Shown: in pieces, positions 6,825 through 9,671 of the stretch
Position numbering within the stretch: position 1 is the stretch's first letter
Layout: each line of letters starts with the position of its first letter
IMG/VR virus record: IMGVR_UViG_3300043777_000365
Location: 22,754 to 86,753 of that record
Direction: 5' to 3' (one strand)
Length of the DNA stretch: 64,000 nt
Source: a virus
The notes under the pieces: model-generated
What the model saw: only the letters and a program-made list of their open reading frames with translations
Database searches by the model: none
What the model was told of the DNA's origin: nothing
Translations under genes and position numbers: made by a program

Positions 6825-9671
6825 TCAGGTGACCCCGCTCGACTGCTGGGTCGAGGTCGGCTTCGTCCCCGCCTGCGGCATCAGCGTCGAGTCGTCGAAG
6901 CCGCTGTTCGCGTCAAGCGCCACCTCGACGAAGTTGACCGCGTCGACCTCGATCGTGAGCCCCTGGTCCACGTCCCACGCGAGCGAGTCGCTCTTCACGA
7001 CGAACTGGCTCTGGAAGCTCGTGGACGAGAACGCCTTGAGGTACGCGCTGATGAACTGCGGGTCGAACCCGAGCGCGGACAGCTGCTGCTGGGCGGCGGC
7101 CTGCTGGGTGGCGGCGTCCTCGAGCTCGCCGATGGAGTGCTGCACGGCGGTGGGCTGGCTCGTGTCCACCCGGTCGACCAGGTACTCGATGCGGTCGCCG
7201 GCGAGCATGTCGAGCACGTCCGGGTCGGAGTTGTCGCCGCCGTAGCTCGCGGTGTTGCGCGCGGTGAGCTTCACCTGCAGCTCCCCGCGGTTCAGCCCCT
7301 CGTAGTAGTGCTGCGCCGCCACCTGGAGCGTGTTGAGGTCGGTGATGCCGCTGACGGTGTAGACGCAGTACTTGGTGACGTTGCCGCCGTCGCCGGGGAG
7401 GGTGGAGACGGGGCGGATGTTCTTGGTGGGGGTGCCGGTGGAGCTGCCCTGCTTCAGCGGGGGGTGGCGCGCGACGAGAGTTTGCTTCTTGGACTCGTCG
7501 TAGCAGTTGTGGGTTATGATCCCGTCCGACGTGAACCAACCCGACCGAGTCTGGAGATTGTAGACGTGCCCCGACCAAGCAGAACGCTCGACCTTGAGGA
7601 CCTTGCTCGTCGTTACGCGGACGGAGCCACGTTCGCCGAGCTCGAACGCGCCGAGAACCTCCCGCACAACGCCTTGTGCAGGCACTTCCGACGAGCTGGG
7701 ATTCCGACTCGCACCGGTGGCGTGGAGCGGAATCGCAAACATCGAAGAGAGCTGGCGATGTTGCTGGAGAAGCTTCCAGACCTTCCGCAACAATATGCGA
7801 CCGGGGCCGCCTCCATCCGAGACTTGTCGAGGTCGTTCCACCTGGACAGCAAAGTCGTCCGAGACTTGCTCGTCCTCGCCGGGGTCGAGGTCCGAACTTT
7901 GTGCGCCGCCAGCCAAAACCGCTTCCGAAAACTCGGACCAGAGGGAGCCAAAGCCCTCACCGAGCCCATGCACGCCGCCGTGCGCGGTCGCCGCTGGCCT
8001 CGTGAGCTCGTGCGCCGAATGCAGGAGGAACGAGCAAAGGCGCTGCAGAAGTCTCGTCGCCACGAAGGTCGGTTCGAGGCCGAGCTTGCCAAAATGCTTC
8101 GGCGCCGAGGACTGCGGCCCGTCCCGCAGCAAGCCGTTGGTCGTTACAACCTCGACCTCGGACTCCATCCCATCGCCGTGGAAGTCCACCTTTCCGGTGG
8201 GTCTCCTCTCCACTCCGCCCGCCTTCGAAAGCGAGTCAAAGACCTTGCCGATCTCGGTTGGTCCAGCGTCTTCGTTTGGCTCAACCCCAGGTCCCCGCTT
8301 CGGGAGGGCGCAGCAGACAAGATCGTCGCCCTCCACGAGCTCGCCCATCGCGACCCATCCGCGCGCCGTGAGCACTGGGTGATTCGGGGTTCCGGAGAGG
8401 ACCCGCCCGTTCCAGGCACGTGCGGTTACAAGGGTCCCTGAGTACCACCGCCGATAGGCCTTCTCGACGTCCCTGGCCGCGACGACCGAGTCGCCCACCA
8501 GGCAGCGAAGCTCGATGGCCTTGCGGGCGGTGCGGGTGTACTTGCGCCCGCACTTCGCGCTCTTGAGGTTCCGCCCCCAGACGAACGTGCGCAGCGGGTG
8601 CACCTGGCCGTCGGCCCACGTGTAGCCGGTGAACGGGTCGTCGTAGCGGGGAGGGAACCCCTTGCTCGTCGCGGAGCGGACCCGCTGGATGACGACCGTG
8701 GTCCCCTCGACGCGGCAGTTGTGCCCGACGAGGAGCATGATCTCGACGAGGTAGTCCCACACGCTCATCTTGTTGGTGCCGCTGGTGCCGCCGCCCTTGT
8801 TCGCGGTGGGGCCGCCGAGGTCGGGCCGGTACGCGCTCGGCCCCATCGACGTCGAGAGCATCGGGATGCTGCCGGAGGGGACCGCCGGCCGGTACTCGAC
8901 CGACAGCCCCTGGAACTGGGGGAAGTTGGTGAGCAGCTGGGCCACGGCCTGGTCCAGGGGCTTGGTCACGTCGATGGAGAGCATCGGCGGCATCTCCTGG
9001 TCGAGCAGGAGGCGCGTGTTGTCGACGCACTTCATCCGCACGAGCGCCGTGCCCTCCGACGAGAACTCGTAGTCCCAGTCGTCGACCCAGCCCTGGAAGC
9101 GGAGGTTCGTGCGGGGGTTGCCCTTGGAGTCGACCCACGTGTCCGGGACCATGTTCACCGGGGTGGCGGTCTGCGTCTGGCCCTGCGTGGCGGTCTGCGT
9201 CTGCCCGGCCACCCCCTGGGAGAACTGGTCTTGGGTGAGCATGCCCAGGTAGAACTCGATGGCGACGGAGCGGAACGCGCGCGGGTCCACCGGCAGGTCG
9301 ATGTAGCGGAAGGCGACGTCGAGCGTGTCGCCCTGCTTCCAGCCGTTGCGGCCCATCTTCGCGTCGTGGGGGATGATGCCCGCGACCACCTGGGTGAGCC
9401 CGTCGGAGCTCGAGCTCTGCGCCTGCGGCCCGCCGGGGGCGGCCTGGGCGCCGGCCGCCGCGATGACGTAGCGGGTGATCCCCGCCGGGGCGGTGGGGTC
9501 CTGCTGGTAGGTGAGGGGGGCGTTCTGGGAGACGGTGCCCTTGAGCAGCTGCGGGGGCTGGAGCGTGGACGGGTCGACGATGCTGTCCGCGTACTCCTCG
9601 AGCCGGAGGATGAGCCGGATCTTCGCCCCCGGGAAGTACGACTGGTCGGTCGGGTAATCTTGGTTGGGCAC
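6825..9671 (-). CDS. Baseplate hub (gp27/late control D-like) precursor containing an intein
   Basis: 948 aa; FQGWVDDWDYE...VRMKCVDNTRLLLD is hub-like; lies between the LysM and spike genes; intein at residues 390-722. Confidence 0.75.
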   Translation of the reverse strand: MPNQDYPTDQSYFPGAKIRLILRLEEYADSIVDPSTLQPPQLLKGTVSQNAPLTYQQDPTAPAGITRYVIAAAGAQAAPGGPQAQSSSSDGLTQVVAGIIPHDAKMGRNGWKQGDTLDVAFRYIDLPVDPRAFRSVAIEFYLGMLTQDQFSQGVAGQTQTATQGQTQTATPVNMVPDTWVDSKGNPRTNLRFQGWVDDWDYEFSSEGTALVRMKCVDNTRLLLDQEMPPMLSIDVTKPLDQAVAQLLTNFPQFQGLSVEYRPAVPSGSIPMLSTSMGPSAYRPDLGGPTANKGGGTSGTNKMSVWDYLVEIMLLVGHNCRVEGTTVVIQRVRSATSKGFPPRYDDPFTGYTWADGQVHPLRTFVWGRNLKSAKCGRKYTRTARKAIELRCLVGDSVVAARDVEKAYRRWYSGTLVTARAWNGRVLSGTPNHPVLTARGWVAMGELVEGDDLVCCALPKRGPGVEPNEDAGPTEIGKVFDSLSKAGGVERRPTGKVDFHGDGMESEVEVVTTNGLLRDGPQSSAPKHFGKLGLEPTFVATRLLQRLCSFLLHSAHELTRPAATAHGGVHGLGEGFGSLWSEFSEAVLAGGAQSSDLDPGEDEQVSDDFAVQVERPRQVSDGGGPGRILLRKVWKLLQQHRQLSSMFAIPLHATGASRNPSSSEVPAQGVVREVLGAFELGERGSVRVTTSKVLKVERSAWSGHVYNLQTRSGWFTSDGIITHNCYDESKKQTLVARHPPLKQGSSTGTPTKNIRPVSTLPGDGGNVTKYCVYTVSGITDLNTLQVAAQHYYEGLNRGELQVKLTARNTASYGGDNSDPDVLDMLAGDRIEYLVDRVDTSQPTAVQHSIGELEDAATQQAAAQQQLSALGFDPQFISAYLKAFSSTSFQSQFVVKSDSLAWDVDQGLTIEVDAVNFVEVALDANSGFDDSTLMPQAGTKPTSTQQSSGVT
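7506..8504 (-). mobile_element. Intein (333 aa) in the baseplate hub gene
   Basis: N-terminal CLVGDS, block B TPNHPVL, block F HVYNLQT, C-terminal IITHN followed by +1 Cys (spliced junction ELR|CYDE). Confidence 0.9.
7566..8441 (+). CDS. Antisense-encoded DUF559/Vsr-like endonuclease with N-terminal HTH-like repeats, nested in the intein
   Basis: 291 aa; EAELAKMLRRRGLRPVPQQAVGRYNLDLGLHPIAVEVH...DLADLGWSSVFVW follows the DUF559 pattern; TATGAT at 7515-7520 and GGAG at 7553-7556 precede the GTG. Confidence 0.75.
   Translation: MPRPSRTLDLEDLARRYADGATFAELERAENLPHNALCRHFRRAGIPTRTGGVERNRKHRRELAMLLEKLPDLPQQYATGAASIRDLSRSFHLDSKVVRDLLVLAGVEVRTLCAASQNRFRKLGPEGAKALTEPMHAAVRGRRWPRELVRRMQEERAKALQKSRRHEGRFEAELAKMLRRRGLRPVPQQAVGRYNLDLGLHPIAVEVHLSGGSPLHSARLRKRVKDLADLGWSSVFVWLNPRSPLREGAADKIVALHELAHRDPSARREHWVIRGSGEDPPVPGTCGYKGP

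Follow-up and report, generated by a model that had tools for sequence, protein, structure and literature searches.

Can the same bases encode an enzyme on one strand and, on the other, a linker that a host protein discards? The question is raised by an intein in a phage tail gene lying within the window analyzed here, a 64,000-nucleotide stretch (positions 22,754 to 86,753) of IMG/VR virus record IMGVR_UViG_3300043777_000365. The record has 86,753 bases and an estimated completeness of 93%, the window has a GC content of 69%, and the only public run that contains its sequence, one of soil metagenome DNA, may be its source. An original prediction, made from the letters and their open reading frames (ORFs), placed a complete intein in a minus-strand hub gene and, on the plus strand within it, a separate gene for the intein's candidate endonuclease. 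We find it nearly certain that the antisense ORF is a real, selected nuclease-family gene inside a real intein. It is also probable that the whole forms a two-strand mobile element, that is, a class 1 intein in a baseplate-hub-like tail gene of a soil phage with an antisense nuclease gene as its homing endonuclease. As to whether the antisense product itself acts as the homing endonuclease of this element, we lean toward that view with somewhat less assurance. The features on which the argument draws are listed below (aa, amino acids; HTH, helix-turn-helix).

6825-9671, minus strand: host gene precursor, a baseplate hub-like tail protein of 948 aa including the intein; stop codon at 6825-6827
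8505-9671, minus strand: N-extein, 389 aa, ending ...AIELR; aligned to the intein-less alleles L016 and L017
7506-8504, minus strand: class 1 intein, 333 aa (precursor residues 390-722), with Cys1, TPNH, GHVYNLQT, and IITHN
8295-8504, minus strand: Hint N-lobe, sense codons 1-70, blocks A and B, with Cys1 and T39-x-x-H42
7617-8294, minus strand: sense linker, codons 71-296, translated within the precursor and mostly a shadow of the antisense gene
7506-7616, minus strand: Hint C-lobe, sense codons 297-333, blocks F and G, with the terminal His-Asn
6828-7505, minus strand: C-extein, 226 aa, beginning with Cys +1 (CYDESKK...); aligned to intein-less alleles
7566-8444, plus strand: antisense gene, 291 aa, HTH-HTH-Vsr/DUF559-like, candidate homing endonuclease; GTG start at 7566, TGA stop at 8442-8444
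7590-7880, plus strand: two HTH repeats, at about residues 9-45 and 70-105, from the helices of a structure model and the profile match to 2LVS
8067-8390, plus strand: nuclease core, about residues 168-275, with E171, N195, D197, E206, R223, and W232 kept

An intein and an antisense frame in exact codon register

The intein is identified as a real class 1 element both by its own sequence and by comparison with empty alleles. It begins with CLVGDS (Cys1), carries block B TPNH at 8379-8390 and block F GHVYNLQT, and has a complete catalytic set (C1, T39-P-N-H42, H332-N333, and Cys +1); among 42 family inteins, C1, T39, and H42 are invariant and N333 is nearly so. The original prediction had read a complete 333-aa intein here and had proposed a search for intein-less hub alleles. 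Such alleles were found in L016 (594 aa) and L017 (586 aa), homologs from other viral contigs with 41-42% identity, and their alignment to the window protein leaves one clean 333-column gap at the junction E[AV]R|SY, which together with the block motifs bears out the claim. The extein +1 position is Cys in the window and Ser in the intein-less alleles. Because the hub gene would otherwise be interrupted, we infer that the precursor undergoes protein splicing, and the precursor minus the intein gives a predicted spliced product of 615 aa. As had also been claimed, the intein has no LAGLIDADG or HNH family in Pfam at E ≤ 1, and Pfam found no domain in the sense linker. An AlphaFold2 (AF2) model of the sense intein, made from a 42-row alignment of family inteins, had an overall pLDDT (predicted local distance difference test) score of 66.7, with values of 86-98 at residues 1-70, 95-98 in the C-lobe, and below 50 at residues 126-148, 173-240, and 249-274.

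The plus-strand ORF had been described as a 291-codon frame in codon register with the intein, and both properties stand: positions 7566-8441 encode 291 aa free of stops, and the register is exact, position 3 of the minus-strand codon being position 1 of the plus-strand codon. It is this register that makes such double reading workable: a strand that does without Leu TTA, Leu CTA, and Ser TCA, three codons that all have synonyms, leaves its partner free of stops. The TGA at 8442-8444 is the mirror of a sense Ser TCA codon. The further claim that the ORF lies entirely inside the intein holds for the GTG 7566 start, which is the one supported by homologs, and fails for the stop-to-stop frame, because that longer frame begins at about 6663 and runs to 8441 (592 codons), reaching far into the C-extein. 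The roughly 300 further codons open upstream, across the C-extein at 6663-7565, make up a plain GC-rich shadow frame, and it is for this reason that the ORF listing gives a 434-aa ORF from GTG 7137. Other long antisense frames occur on the plus strand of the window (for example, 5167-7245 and 8598-9899). Such frames are common at 69% GC, so the length of the ORF is in itself no evidence, and the evidence comes from homologs.

Base composition sets the whole intein apart. In the sense frame, GC content at third codon positions (GC3) is 0.99 in the exteins and about 0.73-0.80 across the intein. This drop suggests an element not fully adapted to the composition of the phage; it extends to the Hint lobes, in which constraint seems to act on the sense strand alone. 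As a test of which strand is coding, GC3 was set aside as not decisive, both strands being intermediate within the intein (0.73 for sense and 0.71 for the antisense gene, versus 0.99 in the exteins).

The antisense protein very probably belongs to a nuclease family

The 291-aa antisense protein of the window (P0001) has many relatives. A phmmer search against 1.84 billion representative proteins returned 1520 homologs at E ≤ 1e-3, mostly of 220-300 aa, including 908 at E ≤ 1e-10 and 25 at E ≤ 1e-30. A word-index search added five homologs, one of them named "very-short-patch-repair endonuclease" by its source and three of them (P0004-P0006) carrying a precomputed Pfam PF18741 assignment. A PHROGs search with P0001 gave nothing, and a search of viral contigs for relatives using P0001 alone found none.

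An AF2 model and a family profile were both made from a 62-sequence alignment. The model has a mean pLDDT of 92.8 and a predicted template modeling score of 0.71, and it has a pair of HTH units of three helices each, long helices as connectors, and an alpha/beta core. Searched against the PDB, the family profile matched 2LVS, a protein with tandem HTH units, at E 1.1e-8, and 3HRL, an "endonuclease-like protein" of DUF559 type, at E 2.9e-4; the Vsr structures 1CW0 and 1VSR came in at E 0.099 and 0.8. Foldseek against the PDB ranked the catalytic domain of I-Bth0305I (3R3P) second, with a probability of 0.97, a template modeling (TM) score by target of 0.57, and an E of 0.09; the top row, a mitoribosomal protein, was disregarded (TM 0.21, root mean square deviation 16). 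The original prediction had read two HTH repeats followed by a DUF559/Vsr-like nuclease, and the 2LVS and 3HRL profile matches and the AF2 model agree with it. For the PD-(D/E)XK/DUF559 affinity that it proposed to check, there are likewise matches, in Pfam (below the gathering score), in the PDB profile search, and in Foldseek (E 0.09).

P0001 keeps 20 of the 22 residues that are invariant or nearly invariant across the 62 sequences, including all of those in the nuclease core, and E171, N195, D197, E206, R223, and W232 are its putative catalytic residues. The window copy has an SPLH variant, and many family members have G-x-W-H. The antisense proteins of L021 and L022, which lie in inteins of 272 and 281 aa, do not have the first HTH repeat. 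The window element (333 aa) thus has one extra N-terminal HTH repeat relative to its nearest hub relatives (L021 2429-3244 and L022).

The two reading directions meet most closely at two places. The nuclease motif YNLDL...IAVEVH is the exact mirror of sense VDFHGDGMESEVEVV, and window positions 8160-8204 hold the best-conserved linker motif, which reads VDFHGDGMESEVEVV in the sense direction and YNLDLGLHPIAVEVH in the antisense direction as exact codon mirrors. Sense F108, G110, and D111 are nearly invariant among the 42 inteins. We considered the sense motif DFHGDG..EVEVV as a possible sense-strand domain and rejected it, as it is the codon mirror of the nuclease core YNLDL..AVEVH, which is conserved also in free-standing copies. 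At the other place, the ORF had been said to overlap even the Hint blocks, and direct reading confirms that TPNHPV of sense block B is the mirror of plus-strand HWVIRG, which forms the C-terminal strand of the nuclease model (pLDDT about 97). These six codons therefore appear functional on both strands, as the motif is found also in the free-standing L079 gene.

Selection acts on the antisense strand in the center of the intein

Strand-resolved comparisons address whether the antisense frame is maintained as a protein. In Smith-Waterman alignments of the central region among nine loci, the antisense score exceeded the sense score in 35 of 36 pairs, the lone exception being L005 versus L006 (antisense 60, sense 68). 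Close pairs, which here are Gordonia and enterobacterial phages, separate the strands most cleanly, since a wobble base on one strand is a first codon base on the other; the L012 C-extein comparison was left out for an indel. Between Vivi2 and Angelicage, extein changes fell at sense codon positions 1, 2, and 3 in numbers of 2, 1, and 45. Intein changes in close pairs were distributed as 58, 14, and 57. Along the intein, changes in these pairs were sense-synonymous in approximately the first 55 and the last 50 codons and antisense-synonymous between them.

The window itself follows the same pattern. Against L021 and L022, which carry inteins at the same hub site, antisense protein identity is 46% and 43%, and that of the N-extein is 38-40%. 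Conservation is higher in sense at the Hint ends and higher in antisense in the center; in columns 226-255, for instance, there are 13-14 antisense identities out of 30, versus 4-6 in sense. These comparisons show that what is preserved of the antisense gene is its protein and what is preserved of the sense linker is no more than an open frame, with the selected strand switching at the Hint lobes. The original prediction had called the central intein an antisense shadow and had looked to conservation of the plus-strand ORF and to the strand under selection as checks. Low sense pLDDT, antisense conservation, and the substitution pattern uphold its view of the center, the ORF is open in homologs, and it is the plus strand that is selected there, not the minus-strand linker alone.

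The unit recurs in unrelated phage genes

A tblastn search of 50,697 phage records with the plus-strand protein found matches in 117, among them phages of Salmonella (62), Gordonia (15), Pseudomonas (15), and Escherichia (6), with further matches in Vibrio, Acinetobacter, Aggregatibacter/Haemophilus, and other phages. In Gordonia phages Vivi2, Fosterous, Affeca, and Angelicage, the match covers 96% of the query at 35-37% identity (E 6e-38 to 9e-31) and runs antisense to the MuF gene. Of 14 annotated phage regions, 13 have the match antisense to an annotated head-morphogenesis or MuF-like gene, and the antisense copy is annotated in none of these 13, which shows that standard annotation misses a large nuclease family. 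In the remaining region, from Acinetobacter phage IME285, the match coincides with a gene that stands free and is annotated. Related phages, low-GC Aaphi23 included, keep the mirror frame open over 232-340 codons. Among the 13 is Escherichia phage Snoke (L002, MK931441.1), whose record does annotate the intein: its note gives 273 residues (Cys244-Cys516), its mat_peptide feature covers 630 bases only, and the 269-codon antisense ORF (L002 1435-2244) carries no annotation.

A scan of IMG/VR with a 14-row alignment and two peptide patterns yielded 80 loci. The mirror frame is stop-free across the match and lies within a 411-1428-codon frame in 79 of the 80, contigs of 37-49% GC included, a proportion that over-represents embedded copies because the pattern VIRG[ST]G is the mirror of block B. 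The T[PA]xH motif stands at the expected place in 76 of the 80 loci. Extein Leu and Ser usage predicts 271.7 mirror stops (TTA, CTA, TCA) over the 79 embedded genes, with 2-12 per locus in relatives of 37-49% GC, and we found 0, which is partly built in because the 79 loci are those meeting the open-frame test. Mirror-stop codons do occur in the free-standing genes, 12 in L010 and 3 in L079. Host genes, assigned by extein clustering and Pfam, fall into the following groups.

MuF-like genes: 64 loci, insertion at HPN|C(R/K)C
Second MuF site: L073 2033-3988 (minus strand) and L078 2186-3829 (minus strand), insertion after R-T-[EK]
UDG (uracil-DNA-glycosylase) or UDG-DNA polymerase A genes: L023, L034/L036, and L082, insertion before CRPP (N-x-V-x|CRPP)
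Hub genes: the window, L021, and L022, insertion at VE[AV]R|[SC]Y

By these assignments, the unit of Hint lobes plus antisense nuclease recurs in several unrelated phage genes (MuF, UDG/PolA, and hub). Homolog conservation, strand-specific substitutions, structure prediction, and this recurrence in many phages support the core structural reading of the original prediction. The L073 and L078 inteins end in G/S-N, followed by Thr instead of Cys. Where the unit sits in UDG domains, two of the hosts are UDG-exonuclease-DNA polymerase A fusions.

Two copies of the nuclease gene stand free of any intein, L010 455-1348 (plus strand) with 1345-2127 (minus strand) and L079 2387-3352 (plus strand) with 3343-4197 (minus strand). 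Each is convergent with an intein-less Phage_Mu_F gene, overlaps its 3' end, and lies a few codons from the MuF C-x-C motif that embedded copies interrupt. The L010 gene is annotated as AYP68850.1. At its N terminus, the L079 copy carries an additional Cys-rich extension, and its C-terminal end still reads YRVIRGSG. Among hub alleles, three were found with the intein and five without it (L016-L020), the latter being candidate targets. The hub extein tree groups the intein-less alleles in a single clade (89/92) and leaves the three alleles with the intein as long unresolved branches.

Candidate expression signals in Hint blocks F and G

Candidate signals for the antisense gene lie in the mirror of the C-terminal Hint blocks. 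The GTG 7566 start mirrors CAC, the His codon of block F, and two sites precede it.

7553-7556, plus strand: Shine-Dalgarno (SD)-like GGAG, 9 nt before GTG 7566; mirror of block F Leu-Gln
7515-7520, plus strand: -10-like TATGAT, 45 nt before GTG 7566; mirror of block G Ile-Ile (ATC ATA); candidate only

The Ile codons of the hub exteins are all ATC (20 of 20). We surveyed 44 distinct family inteins, 5 of 49 having been dropped for identical last 120 nt. Every one of the 34 members with an H[VI][YFW] motif has its start in the mirror of the block F His codon (26 ATG and 8 GTG). An SD-like tetramer occurs at most 15 nt upstream in 30 of these 34 (9.7 expected from synonymous resampling with local codon usage), and 27 of 44 have TAnnnT in the stretch that mirrors the last eight codons (11.5 expected from synonymous resampling), both expectations coming from a codon-resampling null that ignores kinship among loci and dinucleotide context. 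Several of the TAnnnT members read TGTTATAAT, matching TGnTATAAT, which is the extended -10 form. In L001, L005, and L006, there is an in-frame stop just upstream of the block F-mirror start.

Placement of the start codon and SD of the antisense gene in block F is well supported by these codon choices, and a promoter in the mirror of block G is a lead. Besides the simplifications of the resampling null, it counts against such a promoter that a two-hexamer scan of 7300-8700 found no sigma-70-like promoter, so the -10 box is a hexamer only. Of terminator-like sites, there was one on the minus strand, no more than shuffles give. A bolder reading is that Hint blocks F and G have become co-adapted as an antisense expression cassette with a host-independent promoter, so that the nuclease is expressed apart from the late operon, and that this is one unit across many phage lineages beyond actinobacteriophages, in at least three unrelated genes (MuF, UDG/PolA, and baseplate hub). 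In such a cassette, the block F His codon may serve as ATG/GTG, the Leu-Gln/Glu codons as the Shine-Dalgarno sequence, and the Ile-Ile-Thr/Ala codons, with the rare ATA chosen, as a (TGn)TATAAT-type -10 box. We hold this reading tentatively and put it a little short of an even chance. If it is true, the embedded start codon, SD, and -10 box would explain expression against the direction of the late operon.

How the element may work and what else could explain it

In the mechanism that we favor, the Hint splicing lobes are encoded at both intein ends on the sense strand, and the approximately 230 codons between them would be read on the opposite strand as an independent gene for two HTH repeats and a Vsr/DUF559/EDxHD-type nuclease. 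The antisense product would cut intein-less hub alleles, and repair would then copy the whole element. Translation of the hub precursor would run on through a linker without meaning, protein splicing would rescue the product, and the antisense gene would be expressed from its own signals, independent of the late operon. Such a layout may decouple endonuclease expression from the late host gene, as the original prediction had proposed.

Several results temper this account. The window intein scores 28.3 bits (E 1.8e-6) with Pfam PF14890 Intein_splicing, below the gathering score of 35.8, because the long non-homologous linker splits the match; L021 and L022, with inteins at the same hub site, exceed that score at 36.7 and 38.6 bits. 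P0001 scores 21.7 bits (E 2.1e-4) with PF18741 REase_MTES_1575, below the cutoff of 38.2, and Foldseek of the antisense model against the PDB gave no match at E ≤ 0.001. Sense residues 81-121 have a moderate to high pLDDT of 64-93, so the linker is not demonstrably structureless throughout; the confidence around the motif there reflects either a real Hint-associated element or a conservation artifact. The hub extein tree does not separate vertical from horizontal inheritance of the intein, and a bioRxiv preprint (10.1101/2025.01.02.630785) notes that several VSR-like cases look vertically inherited. Our literature search found no activity, splicing, or expression results for any family member.

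It is scarcely credible that the plus-strand ORF arose by chance as the shadow of a GC-rich gene and that the functional element is the sense linker, for example as an unrecognized in-frame endonuclease. Long antisense frames are common at 69% GC, with the plus frame here open for 592 codons, and the near invariance of sense F108, G110, and D111 and the pLDDT of 64-93 at residues 81-121 would fit such a view, but the frame is also open for 232-340 codons in relatives of 37-49% GC, and extein codon usage there predicts 2-12 mirror stops per locus (271.7 summed over the 79 loci). Conservation is greater in antisense than in sense in 35 of 36 pairs, central substitutions are antisense-synonymous, the 1520 homologs include free-standing ones, the antisense model reaches a pLDDT of 92.8 versus values below 50 in the sense center, and the conserved sense F-x-G-D is itself the exact mirror of the nuclease A-V-E core. 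We also judge it quite improbable, if less so, that the antisense protein has been domesticated for a non-homing phage role (as a DNA-binding regulator or as a nuclease against competing phages or host DNA) with the intein as its coding platform. Family members, the window copy included, conserve the acidic core residues, free-standing copies adjoin the MuF target motif, and the strict link to conserved-motif insertion sites (HPN|CRC in MuF, N-x-V-x|CRPP in UDG, and VE[AV]R|[SC]Y in the hub) fits homing. These points are set against the two HTH repeats, which make up half of the protein, the SPLH variant of the window copy where many members have G-x-W-H, and the standing of homing as a proposal.

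A less remote, though still unlikely, alternative is that a free-standing selfish nuclease gene has come to be nested in a dispensable intein loop, with another target or no activity, and that the intein is inherited vertically. The free-standing homologs L010 and L079 beside an intein-less Phage_Mu_F gene are what this would predict, and the lack of resolution in the hub tree is compatible with it; the same preprint proposes invasion of inteins by a free-standing endonuclease gene and contains several VSR-like groups that look vertical. However, the same nuclease family is found with the same Hint family in at least three unrelated hosts (MuF, UDG/DNA polymerase A, and hub), as would be the case for a cooperating unit, and the start codon and SD are built into block F family-wide, a sign of long co-adaptation. 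The window copy has an intact set of nuclease core residues. The GC3 of 0.71, versus 0.99 in the exteins, also suggests that the element is not an old resident, although dual coding is a further constraint on it. The homing reading can be approached experimentally by codon choice: sense-synonymous Leu/Ser swaps stop only the antisense gene, making the role of the nuclease in intein spread separable from the host protein.

Relation to known systems

As a kind, the layout is already known, and the novelty that the original prediction implied was too high. Gosselin, Arsenault & Gogarten (bioRxiv 10.1101/2025.01.02.630785, version 2025-10-20) describe 63 actinobacteriophage inteins with non-canonical endonucleases, some of them "anti-sense VSR-like," and hold that such inteins are probably much commoner and missed by annotation. 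They cite antisense LAGLIDADG endonucleases in inteins of Synechocystis DnaX and a Chloroflexus SpoVR-like protein (Gorbalenya 1998; Gogarten et al. 2002), so the idea was published by 1998 and 2002. As in their inteins, the window has a contiguous intein with a Vsr-like nuclease antisense between the splicing blocks (7566-8441, plus strand, within 7506-8504, minus strand) and a sense linker without recognizable structure. Minor capsid (MuF) is one of their four host types for non-canonical endonucleases, and Gordonia MuF phages are among our tblastn matches. The window host differs in being a gp44/gpD-like baseplate hub in an uncultivated soil phage, and this host gene is what is new in the window relative to the preprint sections compared, extending a recently described layout to a tail baseplate gene. 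Those sections are without strand-resolved substitutions, a statement on a block F start or SD, or a survey beyond actinobacteriophages. What our analysis contributes is selection resolved by strand, occurrence well outside actinobacteriophages, free-standing nuclease genes next to the MuF target, and evidence from codon choice for embedded signals of translation.

The antisense LAGLIDADG inteins, as the preprint cites them, also have the endonuclease ORF inside the intein and outside its reading frame, but they encode a LAGLIDADG enzyme in cellular hosts, whereas the window has a Vsr/DUF559-like enzyme in a phage. The out-of-frame endonuclease of the cyanobacterial dnaX intein is the subject of a 2026 preprint (10.64898/2026.09.14.751524). 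In the "fractured genes" of Dassa et al. (2009, PMC2677866), the intein is split and a free-standing gene for a Vsr-like endonuclease lies between its halves. They share with the window a Vsr-like nuclease associated with inteins in phage-like DNA and encoded as a separate gene with its own signals, but there the host gene and intein are split in two with the nuclease between them and no strand overlap, whereas the window intein is contiguous and both strands are read. I-Bth0305I and the EDxHD homing endonucleases were treated by Taylor et al. (2011, PMC3239194). Judging from the predicted structure, the window protein appears to share the catalytic-domain fold and acidic core of I-Bth0305I and Vsr/DUF559 proteins (3R3P, 3HRL, and 1CW0). 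I-Bth0305I is encoded in a group I intron, in contrast to the window protein, which has two further HTH repeats at its N terminus and whose gene is antisense within an intein. With about 700 bases read as protein on both strands, an enzyme one way and a spliced-out disposable linker the other, the window would be a clear natural case of tolerated overlapping antisense genes.

The host gene

To call the host gene a gp44/gpD-like baseplate hub is a reasonable, not a proven, label. The exteins had no match in Pfam or PHROGs, Pfam also had none for the intein-less hub homologs, and a profile from the hub alignment gave only a chance-level match in the PDB (E 0.13). PHROGs returned nothing for the two genes downstream of the hub gene, and megablast with the complete host gene as query had no match in the phage collection. 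Because Pfam, PHROGs, and the PDB profile gave nothing, the label rests on ESM Atlas look-alikes and synteny. The N-extein is 38-44% identical to its relatives. For the intein-less homolog L016, the ESM Atlas look-alike search returned Mu gp44-like/Phage_GPD baseplate hub clusters with a feature score of 0.97 and a structural TM by row of up to 0.86. The neighborhood fits a hub gene: upstream in L016 there is a LysM tail protein, and downstream there is a weakly matched Phage_base_V spike gene.

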